Origin: Promethearchaeota archaeon
GTDB lineage: Archaea; Asgardarchaeota; Lokiarchaeia; Sigyniarchaeales; SOKP01
Assembly: GCA_016930515.1 (NCBI GenBank)
Contig: JAFGGO010000106.1
Coordinates: 1-50,434 of the forward strand
Direction: 5' to 3'
Length of the DNA: 50,434 nt
Shown here: positions 12,769-46,485 of the stretch, one piece after another
Numbering within the stretch: position 1 is the first letter of the stretch
How the letters are laid out: every line of letters begins with the position of its first letter
Made by a program: the position numbers and the translations under genes
Notes under the pieces: model-generated
Told to the model about the DNA's origin: nothing
Database searches by the model: none
Seen by the model: the letters and a program-made list of their open reading frames with translations, nothing else

Positions 12769-13326
12769 CTATTTCATGTTGTTTATGATTTTTATGGCTA
12801 ATCGTCTAAAAGCCTCATCAACATTCTTGTTTAATTTTGCCGATGTTTCAAAGTATTCAACACCAATACTCTCGACTTTCTTTTTAATCACATCGTCATC
12901 AATGACTTTAGGAAGGTCGGATTTGTTTCCAACTATGAGGAAGGGAACGTCACCACTCAATTCTTTTAGTTTAGAAATCCAAAAATCTAGACTTTCGAAA
13001 GATTTCTTTGAATCGAGATTGAATACAACAAGGGCTCCAACTGCTTGGAAAAAGTAGTATTCGTTTGCAAATAACTTATCTTTTTGTCCTCCAAGATCCC
13101 ATAAATATAACTTTAAGCCCTTACCTTTTATAGATTCTTTAAGATCTTGATCCTCTAGCTCGATTTCGTCAATCATGCTATTGAGATCTATTTCTTTAAT
13201 CAAAAAATTAGCCCCAATCGTTTGAATGTATTCTTCTTCAAATTGATTGTCAACATAACGAGCGAGGAGACTTGTTTTACCCGCTCCTGCCGAGCCGCAT
13301 AAAATTACCTTACCTCGAAAGCTCAT
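12769..13326 (-). CDS. Rab-like small GTPase
   Basis: G1 GSAGAGKT, G2 TIG, G3 WDLGGQ, G4 NKSD, G5 ETSAK. Confidence 0.95.
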   Translation of the reverse strand: MSFRGKVILCGSAGAGKTSLLARYVDNQFEEEYIQTIGANFLIKEIDLNSMIDEIELEDQDLKESIKGKGLKLYLWDLGGQKDKLFANEYYFFQAVGALVVFNLDSKKSFESLDFWISKLKELSGDVPFLIVGNKSDLPKVIDDDVIKKKVESIGVEYFETSAKLNKNVDEAFRRLAIKIINNMK

Positions 13327-29878: not shown

Positions 29879-30814
29879 ATGACGAGTAAAATCATATTTC
29901 TTGGATTAGACAACGCCGGTAAAACAAGCATTATCACCGCTATTTCAAAACGTTTTGGATTCGAAGAGGAAGTCATGAATTTAATCCCCACGAGAAGGAT
30001 CGATAGGGACACATTTTCTTTCTTGGGCTTGGAATTCTTGCGTTTTGACATGGGCGGGCAAGAACAATACAGGGACGATTACTTGAAAAATCCTTCCAAG
30101 TATTTCACGGGAACGGATTTGATATTTTACGTCATTGACGCCCAAGATTACGACAGGTACATAGAATCTATTGATTATCTTGACCAAGTTTTGCTTTTCT
30201 TCAAAGAAGCCCAAGAAAACCCTCCAGTCGCAATTTTATTTCATAAGTTCGACCCCCAACTCACGAACGAAAAAGAGATCAACCAAAAGATCCTCACTCT
30301 CAAGCAAGCACTCACCAAATATTCCCGAGAATTTGATATCTTTTTCTTTGAAACGAGTATTTACGATATCAAAACCATCATGGACAGTTTCTCTAGCGGT
30401 TTATCGCTTTTGTTCGATAAAATGGAGATGGTCTCGCACCTTTTTTCAGAAATCAGCAAGAATTACAACGCTCTTTTGATTTCGCTCTTTGATTCAAAGG
30501 GAATAACGATTGGCGAGTATTATAGGCCCCATCTACATTTAAACGAGAAATTGAAGATATACGATCTTTACATCGAAGCACAACGGAGAATTATCGAAGA
30601 AAACCGGGACATGTACGAGTTTTCCGACAAATTCGACAATGGAAACCGTTTTTCAGGCGTCGTTGAGGCCTTAACCTTTGGAAACATGCATTTTTACTTG
30701 CTCTTCATCATCGAGGAGGACGAATCAGATCTAGGAAAAACCATTACCATACTTGATAAGATCGAAGCAGCCAAGCCTCAAATGGAGAATATAATTCTGC
30801 AAATTATTCAATAG
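29879..30814 (+). CDS. Rag/Arf-like small GTPase with C-terminal roadblock-like domain
   Basis: GLDNAGKT, DMGGQ, HKFD, ETSIYD; C-terminal ALLISLFDSKGITIGEY. Confidence 0.85.
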   Translation: MTSKIIFLGLDNAGKTSIITAISKRFGFEEEVMNLIPTRRIDRDTFSFLGLEFLRFDMGGQEQYRDDYLKNPSKYFTGTDLIFYVIDAQDYDRYIESIDYLDQVLLFFKEAQENPPVAILFHKFDPQLTNEKEINQKILTLKQALTKYSREFDIFFFETSIYDIKTIMDSFSSGLSLLFDKMEMVSHLFSEISKNYNALLISLFDSKGITIGEYYRPHLHLNEKLKIYDLYIEAQRRIIEENRDMYEFSDKFDNGNRFSGVVEALTFGNMHFYLLFIIEEDESDLGKTITILDKIEAAKPQMENIILQIIQ

Positions 30815-32238: not shown

Positions 32239-32396
32239 AAATTCCATATTTATCAATTTTTTAGATTATATTGGGAATCTATCGTTATTACATAAGTTAT
32301 GTTCAAAAGTTTTATATATTGATTGCAACATTATAAAATAAATGTTTTTTAAAAACAATCTAAAAAAAAAACAATCTAAACCTAAAATGTGATACC

Positions 32397-35300
32397 ATGA
32401 AATATAAAAATATGAAATTAAATTCAACGATTCTAATTGGTTTAATCCTTATTAGTTCATTGCTTTCGATTTCCATGCCTACAAATTTTAATAATAAAGA
32501 AAATGAAATAAAAGACGAAGATCAATTCATTGAAGATATTTTAAACACAAACGCCATTGGAGAAGATCCGTGGTGGAATAGTTCTTTTCAATGGAGAAAA
32601 TGCTTATCAATAACTAATCCAGGAACATATAACTTAATAGATAATTGGGTATATTTAACAATCGATCTTTCGGATTCAGATTATGTTGGAAGAATCCAAT
32701 CCAATGGAATGGACTTGAGAATTGTAGAAAATGGAGTAGTTAGAGATTATTGGGTAGAAGTGAACCACCCTTCGAGTGGAATGTTAACCATTTGGTTTGA
32801 AGCGAATTCTACTGCGGGAGAAACAGATTACGACACGTACATGTATTTCGGAAACAATACGATTACGTCCAGAGGCTCAACTCATGTCTCTGAAAATCCA
32901 GGAGGTCTCATGTGGTTGAAGTTTGACGAAAGCTCCGGGACGACCGCTTCTGATTATATGGGAAATTATGATGCCACTCTCGTAGGTTCTCCCGTATTTG
33001 TCACGGACGCCGCTCAAGGGAGTCACTCGTTAGATTTTGATGGAACGGGCGATTACGGATACATTAGCAAGAGTTATAACGCCGCAAACGCCGTTCCCGA
33101 AATGACGGCTTGCGTCTGGTTTAAGACTTCATTTACTGCCCCCCCATCTAGCACTACTTACGATAGTAGCAATTGGGCCTTCCTCGATTTTGATAGATCA
33201 GAATATTGGAATTTTTACATTCGGGGAGACAATGGGAAAATAAGTTATTCAACGACATCAACATCCGGAGGGACGGACGATTTTGATAGCAACACGGATT
33301 CTTTAAACGACGGTGCTTGGCATTTTGCCTGCGTGGTCTACGACGGTAGTGATAAAATAATATATATCGGCGGCAACGAGGACGCTCGATTGCCGGCCAG
33401 TTCCGCACACAACGGCTATGGTCTCGGTACGGGAACTCTAAGGTATGGAATCATAGGAGACGGTTCTGAGGCAGATGCCTATCCACCAACGGCGACAAGC
33501 GAACGGAACGATATTTATTACGACGGTCAAATGGACGACCTGCGCTATTGGGAACGAGCACTTTCGCCAGGAGAAATTGATTGGTTAGCCAATTATTACG
33601 ACATGTCAATCACACCTTTATCCTTAACTGAAAAATCCGCCACCGTTACTGTTGTCGTGAAAGATATTGACGGCAGGCGAGTTCCTGGAGCAGAAGTTCA
33701 GCTCTGGAACGGTTCAGAAGTCGTGAACGTCTCCGGATTTACCTCGTTAACGACTGATTCGAACGGAGAAGTCGAATTCTCGGGTGTTTCCTTTGGATCT
33801 TATAACATGACAGTAAATTACACGATCTCGTACGACTCAACGGTTTGGGAAGAAATCGTTTACGATAGTAGGACGATAACGGGAGGAGAATTCAGCTTTG
33901 TGGGATTAATCGTAACTGAAACAATACACGCTAATTTATGGACGATCGATTTTGATATCAACGACTTGGACGGCGATCCCTTGTACTTGGGATACATTGT
34001 CGTTAATTCAAGCGATGTAGTAATGGCAAACCTCACGCTCAACTCGGCGGGAACGGCGCAATTCCGTTGGTTGTACAATTCGGAGGGATATAACTACAGC
34101 ATATATTACTTCAATCGGGACATTGCGATCCAGCCGAGCACTGGAACCTTGATAAAGTGGGGAACTGCAACTTATGGTACGATATCTGAAATTTATGATG
34201 TTATATCAAATGCAGTATCTCCGTATCCAGAAACTTATGTAGTTGATAAGACAAATTTCGTACCAGGATCTAGTTTAGGAGTTTCTGGAGCTCAGAAAGC
34301 CGTAGAGATCCACCTAAATTGCGAAAATATGAACGATAACATCACAAGAATATCAACAGCATATTACCAACCTTCTGTAAACCCAAAAGATATTATTGAT
34401 GAATTTCCTGAGGCTACTTCTGCTTCAATCGAATATCTTCCATTAGACGATGGAGTTTCTGTTTATGGTTTTCAATTCATAGTTTCTGGAGAAAATTTAA
34501 CTACTTGCACGGGGACCATCACGCTCAATATAACATACACACACATGGAACAAGTTACCGTAAACCTCACGAAACTTACAATTACGGTCATTGATAATGT
34601 ATATTGGGATGCCATTCCTGGCATGGACATTCGCGTGGAAATTAACGGCACCACGGATGTAGTGGTCGACAAAGGTTTATCTTACGGATTGGAAACCGAT
34701 TCAGACGGCGTTGCTCGGGGTAAGATAAACGCAAACACGGTGTTCTGGTACAAGCAAGGTATTTATAATATATCAGTATGGCCAATACCCTCTTTGATGT
34801 ATCAAGTACTTGTCAACGACACATCAGATCCCAGCCAGATACCCCCTGGAGATCCACAATTAAACGGATATGAATTTAATCTAACATCAGCTTCGTGGAT
34901 AATTCTAGAAGCGAAAATTGATTCTGCCAATGATCAAACCCTATTCGAAGACTATACGGTTTATCGAGAATCCAACCCAGATGTGGAAATATCAAATGTT
35001 ACTTGGGGAGAAAACTTCACGGTATTTGCCAATTTGACTTATACCAACGATGGGGGCAACTCGTGGAATCCTGATGATAATGTTAACACGATAATTTATT
35101 GCACGGTAAAAAGCACGCTTGCTGGAAATCCAGTGTTATTCGTTAGAATAATGTCGTTTGATGGAGATGGTGGGTATAGTATAGAGTTTAATTCGAGTAT
35201 TTTATCTGCAGGAACATCGAGTAAATCGTATATCTTTGAACTAACAGGTAAAAAAGTGAATTATCGAAGACCCGATCCCGTTTCGTTTAGTTTAACCATC

Positions 35301-36671
35301 CTCACGCTCTCCACGGGATTAACATTGCACGAATACGACCCTAGCGACTCCACGCCCGACGAATTGCCAAAAAAACCAACGAATCAGAAATATTACACCT
35401 CGGTCTATTACGGGAGAACGCTAAACATTACCATGAGGTATTTTGACTCGAGTTCCAGTTCAACTTTAACTCCAGACACATATACATATTATTGGGAAGA
35501 CGATTCGGGAATTATGTCCGGTTCACTCGTTCAAGACCATGCTCATTCAGGGTATTGGGTTCTCTCTTTTGATAGCTCTCTATCAAGTATATCTAAAGAA
35601 TATTCTGTTCGAGTAACCATTGGACTCCAAAATCATACCAGAAAAACTAATTACGAGTTTTTCATTACGGTAAATCAAAAACACACGACACTTAACGGTT
35701 CTGCCACTCCAATCTACACTTTAAGAGAAGATGTTTGGGTAAGAGACGATAAAATAATTTACTTTGAATACAACGATTCTGACGACGATCAAAGGCTTGG
35801 ATCGTTAAACACGAATACTGTATATTGGTACAAGCAAGGCGAAAATGGTACCGACACGGTATTTCCTTCAACCGTCTTGGTTGAAACGACAGACAAATTA
35901 CACGCGCTCGATTTAAGCACGGGAGATCTATCGGTTGGGGTGTACATAATTCAGATAACGATCAGCAAGAATCAATACGAATACAAGTCTATCGCCCTGA
36001 CATTATACATTAACAAAAGACCAATTCATACGGGTTACGAAGATATCTTCAAAACGATAGATCAAGGAGCATCCTTTAGGATAACATTAAATTTAACAGA
36101 TACATCAAATAATTCCGTTCCAATTACAAATGCAATGATATACATTACAGGGTCCTTTGGGAATTTGAGCTTCACGGAAACCCAAACGCCCGGTATATAT
36201 TACCTTGACTTTCCAACATCGAGATACGACACTTTCTTCCAACCCATAACCATTAGGGGTACGATATACATGGAAAAAGAACTTCACGAAACTACAGAGA
36301 TTAGCGTTGTATTGACAATCGAAATGCCTAAAGTTGGTGGCATTCCTACATTCTATCTCATCATGATAATAGGGGCCGTGGTTGCGGTTGCAGGAAGCTT
36401 GGGAGCTTATAGATGGGTTCAATTATCGAGAATTCCAAAATTTGTCAAGAAAAACAAGGTGCTCCGAAAGACTATCAATAACAAGGGAACGATCTCGGAA
36501 TCTGACATGTATCCTCCGAAAGAGCAAGCGATAGCGAAACTCTTGGGAAACCGATGGGACAAAATTGGCATCTCTCTTGAAGATGTGCTGGGAGTTGGAC
36601 GGCAGAAAGGCAAGAAATTGCTCAATAAAGCGGAGGATTCCACTACAGACAAGGATGGAGGTGAGTCGTAA
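32397..36671 (+). CDS. Large cell-surface protein: signal peptide, DUF2341-like, LamG/ConA-like lectin, Ig-like repeats, C-terminal TM and ~80-aa cytoplasmic tail
   Basis: WWNSSFQWRK, DLRIV, YMYFGN, W.KFDESSGT.A.D, SLDFDG..DY, DGAWHF, G.MDDLRYW.RALS; many N-x-S/T sequons; TM FYLIMIIGAVVAVAGSLGAY. Confidence 0.85.
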   Translation: MKYKNMKLNSTILIGLILISSLLSISMPTNFNNKENEIKDEDQFIEDILNTNAIGEDPWWNSSFQWRKCLSITNPGTYNLIDNWVYLTIDLSDSDYVGRIQSNGMDLRIVENGVVRDYWVEVNHPSSGMLTIWFEANSTAGETDYDTYMYFGNNTITSRGSTHVSENPGGLMWLKFDESSGTTASDYMGNYDATLVGSPVFVTDAAQGSHSLDFDGTGDYGYISKSYNAANAVPEMTACVWFKTSFTAPPSSTTYDSSNWAFLDFDRSEYWNFYIRGDNGKISYSTTSTSGGTDDFDSNTDSLNDGAWHFACVVYDGSDKIIYIGGNEDARLPASSAHNGYGLGTGTLRYGIIGDGSEADAYPPTATSERNDIYYDGQMDDLRYWERALSPGEIDWLANYYDMSITPLSLTEKSATVTVVVKDIDGRRVPGAEVQLWNGSEVVNVSGFTSLTTDSNGEVEFSGVSFGSYNMTVNYTISYDSTVWEEIVYDSRTITGGEFSFVGLIVTETIHANLWTIDFDINDLDGDPLYLGYIVVNSSDVVMANLTLNSAGTAQFRWLYNSEGYNYSIYYFNRDIAIQPSTGTLIKWGTATYGTISEIYDVISNAVSPYPETYVVDKTNFVPGSSLGVSGAQKAVEIHLNCENMNDNITRISTAYYQPSVNPKDIIDEFPEATSASIEYLPLDDGVSVYGFQFIVSGENLTTCTGTITLNITYTHMEQVTVNLTKLTITVIDNVYWDAIPGMDIRVEINGTTDVVVDKGLSYGLETDSDGVARGKINANTVFWYKQGIYNISVWPIPSLMYQVLVNDTSDPSQIPPGDPQLNGYEFNLTSASWIILEAKIDSANDQTLFEDYTVYRESNPDVEISNVTWGENFTVFANLTYTNDGGNSWNPDDNVNTIIYCTVKSTLAGNPVLFVRIMSFDGDGGYSIEFNSSILSAGTSSKSYIFELTGKKVNYRRPDPVSFSLTILTLSTGLTLHEYDPSDSTPDELPKKPTNQKYYTSVYYGRTLNITMRYFDSSSSSTLTPDTYTYYWEDDSGIMSGSLVQDHAHSGYWVLSFDSSLSSISKEYSVRVTIGLQNHTRKTNYEFFITVNQKHTTLNGSATPIYTLREDVWVRDDKIIYFEYNDSDDDQRLGSLNTNTVYWYKQGENGTDTVFPSTVLVETTDKLHALDLSTGDLSVGVYIIQITISKNQYEYKSIALTLYINKRPIHTGYEDIFKTIDQGASFRITLNLTDTSNNSVPITNAMIYITGSFGNLSFTETQTPGIYYLDFPTSRYDTFFQPITIRGTIYMEKELHETTEISVVLTIEMPKVGGIPTFYLIMIIGAVVAVAGSLGAYRWVQLSRIPKFVKKNKVLRKTINNKGTISESDMYPPKEQAIAKLLGNRWDKIGISLEDVLGVGRQKGKKLLNKAEDSTTDKDGGES

Positions 36672-37813
36672 TGCCAGTGGGACTAGTTGTAATGAAATGG
36701 GACGAACGGGTTGGAACCGAAATCACCGCGAAATATCCAGACGAGATTAATGTCACGGATAAAACGCTCATGCAAGTATACAGCACGCACGAATATAGCG
36801 GCGAGTCGGGCATGATCAGCCTTATGGTAGGATCCTTGAACATCGCATCCTATTACACGGGACCAGATAAGGGATATTATATCCTCCTGCTTCTAAACCT
36901 GGACGACGACCCGGACGCTTACGAAGGCGGACTTGCAGACGCCTCGAGAGTCATCCTTCAATACATTGACAACGACACGATCGAGGACCAAATAGCGAAC
37001 CTGTTCCGCCGCATATCGGTGTATCCCACGCTGAACAACGAGCAACAGCTCGCCATCACCTACCAAGACGAAATCAAGCGCATGATCGTCAATCGTCTCA
37101 GGGAAGAAGGCGTGGTCACCAAATCTGAACTGATGGTCTGGTTAAAAGACAAGTACAAGGCGGGATTCGTCGATTTGGACGCAATCTTGATCGAACTCAT
37201 CAAGCGAGAGATAATAAAAGAGGCTTCGGTAAAAGGCATGCCTTCCGAATTAATCTTTCTCACGAACGATGTGGTAACCATCAGAACGCCACCTCTAAGC
37301 TTGATAGAAGCTCCTGCCGAGAAAGGATTACCAACTGCGCTTGCGGACGATTACATGACAGAAGTGAAAAAGTTCTTTCAATCGTATCGTCCGTCCGAAG
37401 AAGATAGCTTGAAGATGATCGAAATCTTGAACGACCCGCAAGTATACGAGACCATGAGATTGCTCAGGACCGCGATCGTCACGAAAAGTGATCTCGAAAA
37501 ACTCAAGAAGAAAGGAGTGGACGACGTGGACGATGTCCTCAAAAAACTTTGGGACGCGAAAACGATCCAAGTATTTCGGGACGACAAGAACAACGAGTAT
37601 TACGCCCTGTTAAGCGATTTCTACCTCAACCTCATCTTTCCGAAGTATATGTTCAGCGTTATAAAGAAGGACTACGAGCAAAAATCGAAGTCCAACCAAG
37701 TTCTCGTGGAGTACCTTAAAGTGCTCGAAGACGCCTACCTCACTAAGAAAGCGGGTAAGAAGAAAGCAGTGAAAAGGAAATTACCAACCATTCGATTGAA
37801 GCTAAAGAAATAA
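36671..37813 (+). CDS. Longin/uDENN-like N-terminal domain plus two winged-helix-like repeats
   Basis: GLVVMKWDERVGTEITAKYP resembles the uDENN/longin start; two wHTH-like repeats (VVTKSEL.../IVTKSDL...); TAATG overlap with the upstream gene. Confidence 0.6.
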   Translation: MPVGLVVMKWDERVGTEITAKYPDEINVTDKTLMQVYSTHEYSGESGMISLMVGSLNIASYYTGPDKGYYILLLLNLDDDPDAYEGGLADASRVILQYIDNDTIEDQIANLFRRISVYPTLNNEQQLAITYQDEIKRMIVNRLREEGVVTKSELMVWLKDKYKAGFVDLDAILIELIKREIIKEASVKGMPSELIFLTNDVVTIRTPPLSLIEAPAEKGLPTALADDYMTEVKKFFQSYRPSEEDSLKMIEILNDPQVYETMRLLRTAIVTKSDLEKLKKKGVDDVDDVLKKLWDAKTIQVFRDDKNNEYYALLSDFYLNLIFPKYMFSVIKKDYEQKSKSNQVLVEYLKVLEDAYLTKKAGKKKAVKRKLPTIRLKLKK

Positions 37814-37876
37814 TATTCATTTTTTTAAATTTTTTTATACCTTTTTTTTAATATTTTAAAGTCATATTCCAGTAGT

Positions 37877-38824
37877 TTAAAAAAAAATTCGATTATTTGT
37901 TGTTTTAACTAAGAAGGGATATTTTTCGGGATCTATATCTTGTGCCACTTGATTTCCTTGCAAATCTAAACATTTGAGATTCGTTAAAGATTTTAAATGT
38001 TCTATTTCATTAGAATCTGATATAGAATTATTGGATAAGTTGATATTCTTAAGGGAGGGGATCAGATTAATGAGGTCAAGGTTTGAAATATGATTGTTCG
38101 ATAAATCGAGATATTCAAGGGAACGAAATGCAAGTATTTCCGAAATTTCGGATAAATCTTGAATGTTATTTCTAAATTCCGCCTTCCATCCCCTTACTTC
38201 GAACTCAATATCTGATAAATCTAGTTCGAGGAGGCGAGCATTTTTTAATTCGTAGTGAACGCTGAAAAAGCGTTTTTTAAGAGAATCCAACGCCTTGTAA
38301 TTTAAAAATATATCAGCTAGTTCTCCAGTGGTAAAATTCTCAATTCTTTGCGATCTCATCATCGATTTTAATTGATTCTTGAATAAATTACGAGAGGTGG
38401 TGCTTTTTCCTTTAAATAGCTTGATTTTAAGGATTTTTTTTATTTCTTGAACTAAAAGTTTTTTAGCAATCTCTTCTCCAATCAATTGCATGATATCGAC
38501 GATTAATATTAAGCAAGGAATGTTATTTTCGTGCTCTAATGCCCACTTAATTAGAGGAAGAGATTTCTGAACGAAACATTCTTTCATGATTTTCAACACG
38601 CATTCTCGAAGTTTATGGTTGTTTTCTGACACATAAGTATTTTCAAGGAATTTAAAAGAAATATTACCTCGATTTCCAATTTTTTTCAAGAATTGAAGGC
38701 TTTCAAGCCTAATCGCGTCGTTTTCTCCTTGTTCAACCAAGGAAACGAGCAAATTAACTGCCGAAGCGGGTGTAATATTATTATTGCTAAAGTCACTATA
38801 TATTGTTCCAGGGGAATATACCAT
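37877..38824 (-). CDS. HEAT-like repeat + leucine-rich repeat protein
   Basis: N-terminal helical repeats; LEYLDLSNNHI, LKNINLSNNSI, LKCLDLQGN. Confidence 0.85.
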   Translation of the reverse strand: MVYSPGTIYSDFSNNNITPASAVNLLVSLVEQGENDAIRLESLQFLKKIGNRGNISFKFLENTYVSENNHKLRECVLKIMKECFVQKSLPLIKWALEHENNIPCLILIVDIMQLIGEEIAKKLLVQEIKKILKIKLFKGKSTTSRNLFKNQLKSMMRSQRIENFTTGELADIFLNYKALDSLKKRFFSVHYELKNARLLELDLSDIEFEVRGWKAEFRNNIQDLSEISEILAFRSLEYLDLSNNHISNLDLINLIPSLKNINLSNNSISDSNEIEHLKSLTNLKCLDLQGNQVAQDIDPEKYPFLVKTTNNRIFF

Positions 38825-38879: not shown

Positions 38880-39830
38880 CTAAAGAAATTGATATTGAGT
38901 AATTACCTCGATATCTCCAAAGACGCCATCTTCCAAAATATTTACTATTTCGTTACCACTCAGGTTTAAAGATCTTAATCCCTTGATTCTTGTTAAATAA
39001 TTAACGCTATCAATATGTTCTATTTTATTGTTAGCTAAATTGAGTTTAATCAATTTTGGAAGGCATTCCAAACCCTTAAGATCAGTTAATCGGTTATTTG
39101 ATAAATTCAGGGATTTTAATTGTTTCAGGTTAGACAATCCCGTAATATCTGAAATACTTTCAACAAAGTTGGGGTCTTGATGCATCCAAAGGTTCATATT
39201 CCACCCAATTTCCGAAAGATCCAATTCCGTGACAAGAGCGTTTTCCAATTCGTATCGAACAATCGAAAATTTGTTAATTAGTGCTTCAATCGTCATGTAA
39301 TTTATGAGGATTTCTGATAGCGCTTTAGAAGTTATGTTATTAGAATTGTATTCACGAACTACTTTTTTTATGGCTTTTTGATAACCTAGAAACTGATTTT
39401 GTAATTCAGTATCAGTATATATTTTTTCGCTTGATAGCGCTAAAGCGTTAATAATCGCCTTTTTTGCACTGTCATGGTTTATCTCGGACATTAATAGAAT
39501 TAGGTTAATTAATAAATCGTAATCTGTTTCATTGGAGAGCGCCCAATTGATTAAATTAACCGCTTGAAAGGAAAAAATCGATTTTAAAGCGTTTGCAGAA
39601 GCAATTCTCACATTTATATTACTATCGGAGAGCATTAAATTCTCAAGAGTAAAAAAAGCTTTTTTATCGTCTCTCAATGCTATTTTTTCCATGATTTTAA
39701 CGCATTTTACTCTAATTTCTTGAACGAGACTATTTTCTATCAAAGATTCAAGCAAGTTAAGAACTGTATTTCTGTCTAGTCGTCCATCTTGATATTCGCG
39801 ATATAAAGAGTCGGGATCGAAATTTGTCAT
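38880..39830 (-). CDS. HEAT-like repeat + LRR protein (tandem paralog)
   Basis: LENLMLSDSNINVRIASA; LKSLNLSNNRL, LIKLNLANNKI, LRSLNLSGN. Confidence 0.85.
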   Translation of the reverse strand: MTNFDPDSLYREYQDGRLDRNTVLNLLESLIENSLVQEIRVKCVKIMEKIALRDDKKAFFTLENLMLSDSNINVRIASANALKSIFSFQAVNLINWALSNETDYDLLINLILLMSEINHDSAKKAIINALALSSEKIYTDTELQNQFLGYQKAIKKVVREYNSNNITSKALSEILINYMTIEALINKFSIVRYELENALVTELDLSEIGWNMNLWMHQDPNFVESISDITGLSNLKQLKSLNLSNNRLTDLKGLECLPKLIKLNLANNKIEHIDSVNYLTRIKGLRSLNLSGNEIVNILEDGVFGDIEVITQYQFL

Positions 39831-40069: not shown

Positions 40070-41212
40070 TTAAAAAAATTCTCTAGATTCCTTGAACTTT
40101 TTAGCCATTGTCGTCTTGAGTTGGTTAAAGGGTTTTAAATTACCCGAGAACGGATGTTTGATAGCACTTTTAAGTAAAGGCTCCAATTGAGCTTCCATCT
40201 TTTCTAACTTGCCCAAGTTTCCTTCTGAAAGTAAGGAGGCATAATAGTCGTTTTGTAGTTTTTTAAAGGTAAGAAATCGATAGTTTTGAAAACCAAGCTT
40301 TACGGCAATCCACCTAGGGGTTGCACCAGTATTTCCTAAGGTGTTAGCTGCAATTGCTTCGATCTTTGCCGTGAGCATGGATTCCTTCATTTCTTGGATC
40401 TCTTCGGGACTATCGAAATTCCCAGGAAACTCAACATGAAGCTCGTCTCCAAATAATAACGAAATAACACCAATAGAACGGGAAGATAATCCAAAGTAAT
40501 GTACTTTAAGCTTATTTTCGACATAAGGTATCTCTTGATCAGAGAACACATCTTGGATCTTGGTATATTCTCTAAGAATAAATTTCAAGATGCTATTGAA
40601 TTTTAGAGTTATTTGGTGTTTCTCGTATTTGGTAAGATCATCGATTTTTTTATCTCTAACAAGGTCCATGAAATATTTGTGCATTTGTTCTAAAATCCAA
40701 GAAGCTTTCTTGTCAGGAAAAATACCATATACGAGAAATATTATATCATTCTTAACAAGGAATAAGATCTTTTCAGTTTCATGAGTCTTTTCTGATATTA
40801 ATGTCATTTTATCAAGCTCGCCCCCTAAAATGCTGGTTGCGATAAAATCTAGGTTGTTTGTGAGCTCTAAAAAATAGATATATTTGTCGCTATTGTGATA
40901 TAATTGCGTGCGGTTTACAGAAGTAATCCCAAGGAGCTTGATGTATTCGTTTTTTGATAATGCAATAAAATCGGACTCGATGCTGATGTCTTCCTCACGT
41001 TGTTTAACGCGAACCTTTCCTTGTAGTTTTTCTGCAACAGTAGAATTAGTCCCTACTTTTTGAGATAAATCCAAGTATTCTTGCTTTTGTTCGTAAAGAT
41101 CAGACAAGTAATTATTGCATCTTGGACATCTTTTATTTTTCGGAAACGGTCTTACGACATTGTATCCACAAGATTTACATGGTATTGAATCTTTCTGAAA
41201 AAAACTTGAAAT
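40070..41212 (-). CDS. Zinc-ribbon + tandem longin/roadblock-like protein
   Basis: The track ORF (to 41107) extends 35 codons in frame, including CKSC...CPRC. The body has longin/roadblock-like strand-helix patterns. Confidence 0.55.
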   Translation of the reverse strand: MSSFFQKDSIPCKSCGYNVVRPFPKNKRCPRCNNYLSDLYEQKQEYLDLSQKVGTNSTVAEKLQGKVRVKQREEDISIESDFIALSKNEYIKLLGITSVNRTQLYHNSDKYIYFLELTNNLDFIATSILGGELDKMTLISEKTHETEKILFLVKNDIIFLVYGIFPDKKASWILEQMHKYFMDLVRDKKIDDLTKYEKHQITLKFNSILKFILREYTKIQDVFSDQEIPYVENKLKVHYFGLSSRSIGVISLLFGDELHVEFPGNFDSPEEIQEMKESMLTAKIEAIAANTLGNTGATPRWIAVKLGFQNYRFLTFKKLQNDYYASLLSEGNLGKLEKMEAQLEPLLKSAIKHPFSGNLKPFNQLKTTMAKKFKESREFF

Positions 41213-45945: not shown

Positions 45946-46485
45946 ATGCTTAACGCGGATGCAACATATAAAATAGCGATTTTCGGTGAAGGAGGCGTGG
46001 GTAAAACCACTCTAACTCAACGATATTTAACCGGTATTTTCAAATTGGACACTCAACTAACTATGGGTGCTGAAATTTTTATAAAATACTTGGACATCGA
46101 AGGTAAGAGAATAGTTTTACAGATCTGGGATTTTGGTGGCGAAGAGAGGTTTCGATTTTTATTACCTACTTACGCACACGGTTCAAACGGCGGAATATTC
46201 ATGTTTGATACTTCGCGATATTCGACTTTAACGAAGTTAGAAGGTTGGCTCGAGGTATTCCGGGAAGGATTAGGGGAACAAGGCAAAAAAATACCCGTGC
46301 TTCTCGTCGGTGGAAAAGTCGACCTGAGTCAAGATCAGCAGGTTTTTAGAGAAGACGCAATGAATCTGGTAAAATCTCATGAAATGTACGACTATCTCGA
46401 ATGCTCTGCTAAAACAGGACATAATGTATCTTTGATTTTTGAGTCGCTCGTTCGAAGAATCATGGAAAGAGTAGGTTTTCTCTAA
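45946..46485 (+). CDS. Rab-like small GTPase (atypical G3/G4)
   Basis: GEGGVGKT, T.G, WDFGGEERFR, GGKVD, ECSAK. Confidence 0.93.
   Translation: MLNADATYKIAIFGEGGVGKTTLTQRYLTGIFKLDTQLTMGAEIFIKYLDIEGKRIVLQIWDFGGEERFRFLLPTYAHGSNGGIFMFDTSRYSTLTKLEGWLEVFREGLGEQGKKIPVLLVGGKVDLSQDQQVFREDAMNLVKSHEMYDYLECSAKTGHNVSLIFESLVRRIMERVGFL

Follow-up and report, generated by a model that had tools for sequence, protein, structure and literature searches.

NPRL2 and NPRL3 (Npr2 and Npr3 in yeast), which belong to the GATOR1/SEACIT GTPase-activating protein (GAP) complex for RagA/Gtr1, each carry a longin domain ahead of at least two winged helix-turn-helix (wHTH) repeats (Levine et al., PMC3747258), and the ligand of those winged helices was left open in the same work. 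For GAP-type longins more generally, the published account (PMC12290439) reports a WD...G signature, which adaptin and TRAPP longins are said to lack, together with a GP motif (G-P); in C9orf72 the residues W33-D34 and G38-P39 are given as essential or conserved, and in the NPRL2 longin a catalytic arginine finger lies beside the GP motif. 'NPRL2-like longin' families have also been described in Asgard archaea by Liu et al. 2021 (10.1101/2020.10.19.343400), and such longins are enriched in 'Ca. L. ossiferum' (PMC9834061). Asgard genomes hold dozens of longin and roadblock proteins as well as small GTPases, and the layout of these genomes seldom pairs a GTPase with a regulator (PMC10933270). 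Here we describe a gene pair, at positions 32,397 to 37,813 of a 50,434-nucleotide stretch of DNA (hereafter the window) from a Promethearchaeota archaeon (GenBank assembly GCA_016930515.1, contig JAFGGO010000106.1), in which the gene of a giant single-pass surface protein (P0001) is followed directly by that of a longin/winged-helix protein (P0002, hereafter the adaptor). In the reading that we favour, and that we hold to be reasonably probable, the two proteins work as receptor and adaptor in one unit, which offers a small GTPase a longin platform of GAP type, where the binding of adaptor to receptor tail is predicted by modelling and the GTPase partner and the outer ligand are what we infer. 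The longin-domain GTPase platform would itself be of a known kind; what is new here is that it would be wired to a single-pass surface protein, so that the adaptor family would supply the otherwise seldom seen pairing of GTPase and regulator and tie it to the cell surface.

A giant surface protein gene and its downstream partner

The giant protein has the layout of a type I surface receptor or adhesin, with an N-terminal signal/anchor (hydrophobic, with a transmembrane segment at about residues 8-27 by hydropathy), a large outer region, a single C-terminal transmembrane helix and a cytoplasmic tail, and it is from this layout that we infer its membrane topology. Pfam matches in the ectodomain are to Laminin_G_3 (E-value 3e-12), DUF2341 (5e-5) and CarboxypepD_reg/Big_1 (2e-5 to 5e-5), and the rest of the ectodomain is a long Thr/Ser/Asp/Asn-rich region of beta type. 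With 30 N-x-S/T sequons the ectodomain exceeds the 17.3 +/- 3.4 of composition-preserving shuffles, and the tail has no sequon at all, a distribution that fits an extracellular, glycosylated ectodomain. The tail itself is strongly basic (net charge +7, isoelectric point (pI) 9.8) and is 84-91 aa long in most related loci, where it follows the consensus RIPxFVKK..K.I..K..ISESLLYPxKEE.I.K.LG..W..LGLSLEDILG. Tails for this comparison were gathered from the related loci that we had fetched, a word-based homologue search with the tail region having returned only 6 proteins.

Several signals tie the adaptor gene to the end of the giant gene. A Shine-Dalgarno site, GGAGGTGA, lies 6 nt ahead of the adaptor ATG, the stop and start codons overlap as TAATG with one base in common, and no terminator-like T-tract was seen between the two genes when the sequence was read directly. 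Judged by these signals, P0001 and P0002 are a translationally coupled bicistronic unit. Because the Shine-Dalgarno site is embedded in the last codons of the giant gene, the giant proteins end in a conserved Gly-Gly.

The pairing is widely conserved. From contigs of one genome per species we assembled 76 related loci holding 101 adaptor copies, 9 of them at contig ends, which left 92 that could be assessed. The adaptor lies downstream of a giant homologue on the same strand in 83 of these 92, and in 76 of the 83 the gap is either -1 nt (54 copies) or 0 to +3 nt (22 copies); counted over the related copies that have a large upstream open reading frame, the -1 overlap is present in 54 of 87. 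Exceptions are mostly artefacts of start-codon choice, and four are second adaptor copies located after a methyltransferase gene. The same arrangement is kept in a complete 4.36-Mb genome from the window's own taxonomic order, both of whose adaptors follow giants (2598 and 2361 aa) with the same tail. At greater distance, in five genomes from other families of the phylum (adaptor 19-34% identical), a giant single-pass protein adjoins the adaptor in 5 of 9 loci, in some with the gene order reversed, and of 301 genomes sampled across the phylum 217 gave an adaptor match, those of the window's own family having several copies each.

The two parts also occur as one polypeptide, in the order ectodomain, transmembrane helix, tail and longin/winged-helix module (P0122, 2090 aa; P0128, 2548 aa), with a tail that is recognisably the same as that of P0001. 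In one genome (G210) five such fused open frames of ~2660 aa stand in tandem, and tandem paralogous pairs are present in many relatives. A pair that occurs both split and fused strongly indicates that its two products work jointly at the membrane, and a chance adjacency of the two genes is ruled out by the conserved pairing and the fusions.

Over 50 orthologous pairs the median identity to the window's proteins rises from 28.5% in the ectodomain, much of which often cannot be aligned, through 49% in the tail to 74% in the adaptor. At one locus (L005) the adaptor is 89% identical and the ectodomain aligns over ~460 columns only, at 25%. By these alignments the outer part diversifies or is swapped and the inner part is frozen. 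The adaptor gene further stands out in its codon usage: no other of the 49 open reading frames in the window equals its GC content at third codon positions (GC3; 0.613, median 0.357) or its fraction of C-ending codons (0.342, median 0.184), and the ribosomal protein genes of the window lie lower (GC3 0.46-0.50). In an AT-rich genome such a GC3 is a hint of strong expression, with which the slow evolution of the adaptor would also agree.

An earlier note on this DNA, made from the letters alone, had described most of these features: a 1424-aa secreted lectin/Ig-like protein with one C-terminal transmembrane helix and a long basic tail, a stop/start overlap with the next gene, and a partner gene rich in GC and in C-ending codons. 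The open reading frame, the LamG and Ig-like Pfam matches, the hydropathy and the tail charge bear out the first, the overlap and its upstream GGAGGTGA can be read directly, and the codon bias exceeds even that of the ribosomal protein genes. The note's proposal that conservation of the gene pair be checked across relatives is answered by the 83 of 92 copies and by the 5 of 9 loci in distant families.

Some further arrangements of the family were seen. At four loci of close relatives (L019, L022, L041 and L061; e.g. L019:4352-5455) the order is methyltransferase, adaptor, giant, adaptor, so that two adaptors flank one giant. In the same genome as the window, one adaptor paralogue follows a 568-aa multipass membrane protein (C36:13577-16396, minus strand) and another a 624-aa single-pass protein (C178:29315-32331, plus strand). 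Two proteins of 1020 and 1046 aa (P0164 and P0169) carry the longin/winged-helix module fused C-terminally to SIR2_2 and TPR repeats, a partner quite unlike the surface proteins and reminiscent of the architectures of NAD-consuming effectors. The adaptor family is not limited to giant LamG partners. Two contigs with an adaptor gene (L007 and L066) have been deposited under the names of bacterial metagenome-assembled genomes (MAGs; Nanopelagicaceae and Hyphomicrobiales), most likely through binning contamination.

Predicted fold of the adaptor and docking of the tail

The adaptor is 73-89% identical to hundreds of Asgard proteins of ~367 aa, encoded in MAGs, and has no meaningful sequence match in Pfam, NCBIfam or the sequences of the PDB. 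With an alignment of 69 family members (identity down to 22%) AlphaFold2 returned a model of high confidence (predicted local distance difference test score, pLDDT, 94.9; predicted template modelling score, pTM, 0.88), which supersedes a poor model (pLDDT 67) made earlier from 24 close homologues. The N-terminal domain is predicted to have the longin superfamily fold (beta-beta-alpha-beta-beta-beta-alpha-alpha, ~120 aa), its strands (E) at residues 4-11, 15-22, 47-53, 56-62 and 69-75 and its helices (H) at 30-43, 81-99 and 104-120 all being modelled with pLDDT above 90. In comparisons with VIA-align it matched dozens of solved longins at Z 9-12, with a root-mean-square deviation (rmsd) of ~3 Å over 105-121 aa. 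NPRL2 (8fw5_B) came first (Z 11.9, rmsd 2.8 Å over 119 aa), a Lokiarchaeal longin (8yqg) matched at Z 11.2-12.2, and longins at Z ~10 include those of VAMP7, Npr3 (8adl_S)/NPRL3, DENND1, FNIP2, Lst4, AP sigma, COPI zeta, Mon1-Ccz1, SRX and TRAPP. The longin is followed by two winged helices (wH1 and wH2) and C-terminal helices.

It is to this second half of the adaptor that the tail of the giant protein is predicted to bind. We modelled the complex of tail (15-sequence alignment) and adaptor (the 69-sequence alignment) beside three controls, and obtained values of the interface score ipSAE of 0.82, 0.82 and 0.80, against 0.00 for the best control, with a partner pLDDT of 73 and a contact agreement between runs of at least 86%. 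The ipSAE mark used is reached by 58 of 80 solved complexes and by 2 of 110 mismatched pairs, a calibration that is only rough here since custom alignments were used. In the predicted complex tail residues 6-57 touch wH2 and the C-terminal helices of the adaptor (residues 200-213, 229-241 and 318-360), and the longin domain makes no contact. Nearly invariant adaptor residues lie in this interface (P207, F236, Y239, P324 and L352, with R205 between contacts 204 and 206), the conservation of interface residues is somewhat higher than that of the rest of residues 121-365 (0.49 versus 0.42), and the charges are complementary, the tail carrying +7 and the adaptor core having a pI of 5.0.

The first winged helix, wH1, resembles ArsR/SmtB-type repressors. 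It superimposes on SrnR (7p6f) at Z 9.7-9.8 (rmsd 2.4 Å over 73-74 aa), its matches to ArsR/MarR-type winged helices span Z 9.3-9.8, with CzrA, CadC and MecI among its likenesses, and some members of the adaptor family have weak Pfam matches to HTH_20, HTH_24, TrmB and TFIIE_alpha. A membrane-tethered transcription regulator following the logic of ToxR and CadC, in which the winged helices would bind DNA and the ectodomain would control them directly or by release of the soluble subunit, nevertheless seems to us highly unlikely. The adaptor is acidic (net charge -11 in the longin, -1 in wH1 and -4 in wH2), and the helices at the recognition positions are hydrophobic or acidic (LDAILIELIK and VDDVLKKLWD). 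In addition, the predicted complex has the receptor tail sitting on wH2, and the fused forms hold the module at the membrane by giant ectodomains that occur in arrays. The winged helices of NPRL2/3 and ESCRT-II are protein-binding modules, which also counts against a DNA-binding role.

The resemblance to NPRL2 and NPRL3 raises the question of whether the adaptor is their true orthologue, in a GATOR1-like nutrient-sensing GAP complex whose target would be the RagA-like GTPase encoded at 29879-30814. The domain order is the same (PMC3747258), and NPRL3/NPRL2 are the top Foldseek matches of P0002 (300-450 aligned columns, E 4e-4 to 3e-3) as they lead the longin comparison; among clusters of the ESM Atlas outside the family the nearest are NPRL2, which is also the nearest eukaryotic one (template modelling (TM) score 0.38-0.39), and Inturned (0.42). 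The Foldseek alignments are long but their TM score is only 0.2, and NPRL2/3 therefore have their domain order in common with P0002 and not their overall arrangement. Orthology would be further helped by a Gtr1/RagA-type GTPase gene (29879-30814, plus strand; Gtr1_RagA E 4e-24), which lies 1.6 kb upstream of the pair, and by the 'NPRL2-like longin' families reported in Asgard archaea (10.1101/2020.10.19.343400). We nevertheless consider it very improbable. P0002 has no Pfam match to NPR2 (PF06218) or NPR3 at E <= 1, and neither family is among the 25 that the 69 scanned members match most often; a PF06218 scan of the genome carries no weight, since it and its controls alike returned nothing. 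The longin motif is kept only in part: W10 is present in 63 of 69 sequences, D11 in 56 and G15 in 65, whereas the proline of the GP motif is present at position 16 in only 8 (P0002 has Thr), and no arginine of residues 1-125 is conserved in at least 80% of the 69 (R13 in 39, R93 in 25, R114 in 30). The context of a giant surface protein, sometimes fused to the adaptor, has no GATOR1 counterpart, and the RagA-like gene is not beside the adaptor in the distant lineages examined. As to its codon usage, the RagA-like gene has the second highest C-ending fraction in the window (0.309; GC3 0.492), in which it resembles the adaptor and ribosomal protein genes.

The earlier note had called the partner NPRL2/GATOR1-like, on the strength of a longin-like start (W-D-x3-G...P) and two wHTH-like repeats, and had proposed fold searches and a model of the tail-partner complex. 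The model and the searches agree with the longin start and the two repeats, and the proposed complex gave the predicted interface described above. Of the likeness to NPRL2 it is the architecture that holds, and orthology that is not supported, with no NPR2/NPR3 match, no conserved arginine and only half of the GP motif retained.

Table 1. Coordinates of the gene pair and its features in the window.
Feature	Coordinates	Strand	Basis
Presumed promoter region, AT-rich and intergenic	32239..32396	+	TATA-like ttttatatat at ~32311-32320 read directly; promoter role putative
Giant single-pass surface protein gene P0001 (1424 aa)	32397..36671	+	Open reading frame and translation
Ectodomain modules: DUF2341 (residues 104-182), LamG-like jelly roll (216-394), Ig/prealbumin-like (413-477)	32706..33827	+	Pfam
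C-terminal transmembrane helix, ~residues 1316-1341	36342..36419	+	Hydropathy scan; position kept in 72 aligned homologues
Basic cytoplasmic tail, 83 aa, residues 1342-1424	36420..36668	+	Tail alignments; RIPxFVKK...ISES.LYPxKE...W..(I/L)G(I/L)SLEDxLG
Shine-Dalgarno site GGAGGTGA of the adaptor gene, inside the last codons of the giant gene	36657..36664	+	Read directly
TAATG stop/start overlap	36669..36673	+	TAA 36669-36671, ATG 36671-36673
Cytoplasmic adaptor gene P0002 (380 aa)	36671..37813	+	Open reading frame and translation
Longin domain, residues 1-120, with W10-D11...G15...P23	36671..37030	+	AlphaFold2 model and structural search
Winged helix 1 (wH1), residues 121-207	37031..37291	+	AlphaFold2 model, structural search
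Winged helix 2 (wH2; residues 222-322) and C-terminal helices (residues 323-380)	37334..37810	+	Secondary structure of the model; predicted tail docking site
Three oligo-T tracts (T7, T7, T8) 3' of the adaptor stop	37820..37849	+	Read directly; likely archaeal terminator of the pair

Small GTPases beside the adaptor genes

Small GTPase genes recur next to the adaptor gene in distant relatives. In 4 of the 9 distant loci a ~285-aa protein adjoins the adaptor, with an N-terminal domain of ~125 aa followed by an Arf/Roc-type GTPase domain at about residues 126-257, and at a fifth a 516-aa protein with an Arf/Roc-type GTPase domain (residues 52-189) is encoded ~800 nt downstream of the adaptor. 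Among the four ~285-aa GTPases, and between them and a 344-aa homologue in a close relative (L003), identity is 34-63%, the similarity being full-length except for one of the four, which aligns over the GTPase domain only. Of the 76 close loci 19 have members of this family, and at 17 of these the gene stands between two receptor-adaptor pairs in tandem. The window's own genome also has such genes. One of its contigs (C40, 1-1652) begins with the C-terminus of an adaptor (64% identical to P0002 residues 334-358) and has the gene of a 465-aa GTPase of the family (C40:255-1652) 174 nt after the adaptor's end, and another (C138, 1-5043) ends inside an adaptor gene downstream of a 1393-aa giant; C40 and C138 are probably adjoining pieces of one receptor-adaptor-GTPase locus. 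Further longin-like/Arf-like GTPases of this genome are encoded at C71:10001-11626 and C98:13465-14370. Because GTPase/longin operons are generally absent in 'Ca. P. syntrophicum', where small GTPase genes are as a rule not in operons with roadblock or longin genes (Tran et al., PMC10933270), the recurrent adjacency of adaptor and GTPase is informative.

The N-terminal domain of these GTPases is a candidate longin. Its sequence has a beta-beta-alpha-beta-beta-beta-alpha-like pattern, and in the ESM Atlas a cluster of such GTPases can be aligned along 149 residues of the adaptor model (TM score 0.33); a feature search of the Atlas with this N-terminal domain gave nothing usable. In distant Asgard lineages a protein of 140-161 aa is encoded between adaptor and giant, or before the adaptor (L101:7620-8042 and L104:7305-7790, minus strand; L108:7610-8032, plus strand); these small proteins have no Pfam match, and two of them share 33% identity.

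Taken together, the giant protein would be a type I, heavily N-glycosylated surface protein, an adhesin or receptor with a fast-diversifying LamG/Ig-like ectodomain, and the acidic adaptor would be made in step with it by way of the embedded Shine-Dalgarno site and the TAATG overlap. The wH2 domain and C-terminal helices of the adaptor would clamp the conserved basic juxtamembrane tail, leaving a GAP-type longin free just under the membrane, where a small GTPase would most likely dock or be regulated. That GTPase would best be sought in the longin-like/Arf-like family whose genes adjoin adaptor genes in other Asgard lineages and, in this genome, the gene of an adaptor paralogue. The adaptor might serve as GAP, as guanine nucleotide exchange factor or as scaffold, and the unit might carry a signal inward, as a sensor, or outward, to place or anchor the surface protein. 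The earlier note's picture of a receptor/adaptor pair linked to small GTPases thus keeps its receptor/adaptor relation, by the conserved coupling, the fusions and the predicted interface, and keeps the GTPase link in general, by the adjacency in distant Asgard lineages and beside the adaptor paralogue here; the glycan or cell-contact sensing that it proposed, and the three GTPases that it named (at 29879, 12769 and 45946, the last two Rab-like, 12769-13326 and 45946-46485), are not among the supported parts.

A number of observations weigh against this arrangement. A GATOR1-like arginine-finger GAP mechanism is unsupported, there being no family-wide longin arginine and so rarely a GP proline. 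Both the tail binding and the adaptor fold rest on predicted models, and a comparison of the GTPase N-terminal domain with the adaptor longin by hhalign found no profile similarity (probability 0.5%). Some adaptor paralogues have other partners, namely the multipass protein on C36 and the SIR2-TPR fusions. Finally, no longin-like/Arf-like GTPase gene adjoins the pair in this window; the nearest GTPase gene is the RagA-like one, three genes away, whose linkage is found in close relatives only and may be mere synteny, so that we have not counted it as support.

Much of the same evidence would also suit a structural anchor or sorting adaptor without GTPase regulation, which would tie the tails to a cytoplasmic scaffold (cytoskeleton, a coat-like assembly or membrane-shaping machinery) or escort and position the surface proteins, in the manner of the AP and COPI longin subunits that bind cargo tails. 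The confidently predicted tail-adaptor interface is in keeping with such a role, the longins of AP sigma, COPI zeta and SNAREs nearly equal that of NPRL2 in the structural comparison (Z ~10 versus 11.9, within ~1-2 Z), the extreme conservation of the adaptor and its highest GC3 would befit an abundant structural component, and the pair in the window is without an adjacent GTPase gene. We think this explanation unlikely, if a good deal less so than the two discussed above. It leaves unexplained why, in distant lineages, one and the same GTPase family is repeatedly encoded next to the adaptor, and it does not sit well with the WD...G signature, which adaptin and TRAPP longins are stated to lack (PMC12290439). 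It also overlaps with a platform for a small GTPase, in that eukaryotic coat adaptors use Arf GTPases too.

Going beyond the single pair, we tentatively put forward, as a possibility somewhat short of an even chance, that the adaptors belong to a three-part module found throughout the Asgard phylum, made up of a hypervariable giant glycoprotein, a conserved tail with its GAP-type longin/winged-helix adaptor, and a dedicated longin-Arf-like GTPase. Were this true, the module could organise the unusual cell coat of these archaea, which has no S-layer, as well as their cell-cell contacts. Cultured 'Ca. L. ossiferum' has no ordered S-layer and displays 'complex surface proteins' (PMC9834061), and the giant glycoproteins would be natural candidates for these surface densities. 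Confirmation would show how GTPase platforms of eukaryotic type were used at a membrane before endomembranes existed.

On the other side of the pair, two tandem leucine-rich-repeat genes of ~315 aa (37877-38824 and 38880-39830, both on the minus strand) converge on it. Homologues of these genes are present in 63 of the 76 related loci, all close relatives, and a functional linkage is unproven. Neither they nor a 345-aa gene at 40070 were counted as linked partners, the arrangement being syntenic in close relatives only and perhaps mere synteny.

Comparison with known systems

Set against NPRL2 and NPRL3, the adaptor is alike in having an N-terminal longin and then two winged helices, and in the conserved glycine of the beta1-beta2 loop. 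It differs in lacking a match to their sequence families and a family-wide arginine finger, in having Thr for the proline of the GP motif, in its poor global superposition (TM score 0.2-0.4), and in being either soluble or fused behind the transmembrane helix of a giant protein whose tail it is predicted to bind. No DEPDC5-like partner was identified, no search having been aimed at one.

C9orf72, which acts with SMCR8 in the CSW complex, and FLCN-FNIP, likewise longin GAP complexes of the DENN-related class, offer a second point of comparison. The W10-D11-x3-G15 spacing of P0002 is identical to that of W33-D34...G38-P39, a likeness of sequence pattern (PMC12290439), and the adaptor family resembles C9orf72, NPRL3 and FNIP in having no obligatory arginine. 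The longin is also matched by those of FNIP2 (6ulg_N, Z 10.6; 6nzd_I, Z 11.0; 8dhb_I, Z 10.8), FLCN (6nzd_H, Z 9.5) and Lst4 (Z 10.1-10.3). Unlike C9orf72 and FLCN-FNIP, however, the adaptor has two winged helices in its C-terminal half and not a DENN module, and no partner longin with an arginine finger was identified for it. By its signature the adaptor longin appears to sit nearer the GAP-type class (C9orf72, NPRL, FLCN) than the SNARE, adaptin and TRAPP longins.

Among prokaryotic proteins the natural comparison is with the catalogued Asgard NPRL2-like asCOGs and GP-motif longins, which the adaptor family resembles in being phylum-wide and multi-paralogous, and within or next to which it probably falls. 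For those longins the two sources (10.1101/2020.10.19.343400; PMC12290439) report two-component fusions, DENN operons and motif conservation. In the library that we searched we found no paper on the coupling or fusion of a longin to a giant LamG protein, on the conserved tail or on the linked GTPase, an absence that is not proof.

A similar general logic is seen in the eukaryotic cargo adaptors, in which longin subunits of AP and COPI meet a cargo tail and an Arf GTPase, and in the pairing of the SRX domain of SR-alpha with SR-beta. There too a cytoplasmic longin factor and an Arf-like GTPase work with a membrane protein's tail, and the longins of AP sigma, COPI zeta and SRX match that of the adaptor at Z 9-10.9. 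Unlike in the cargo adaptors, the tail here is predicted to lie on the winged-helix and helical part and not on the longin, and nothing observed points to coats or vesicles. If the three-part module exists as proposed, it would be a prokaryotic forerunner of the eukaryotic logic of tail, longin platform and Arf/Rag GTPase that is seen in coat adaptors, GATOR1, FLCN and CSW.

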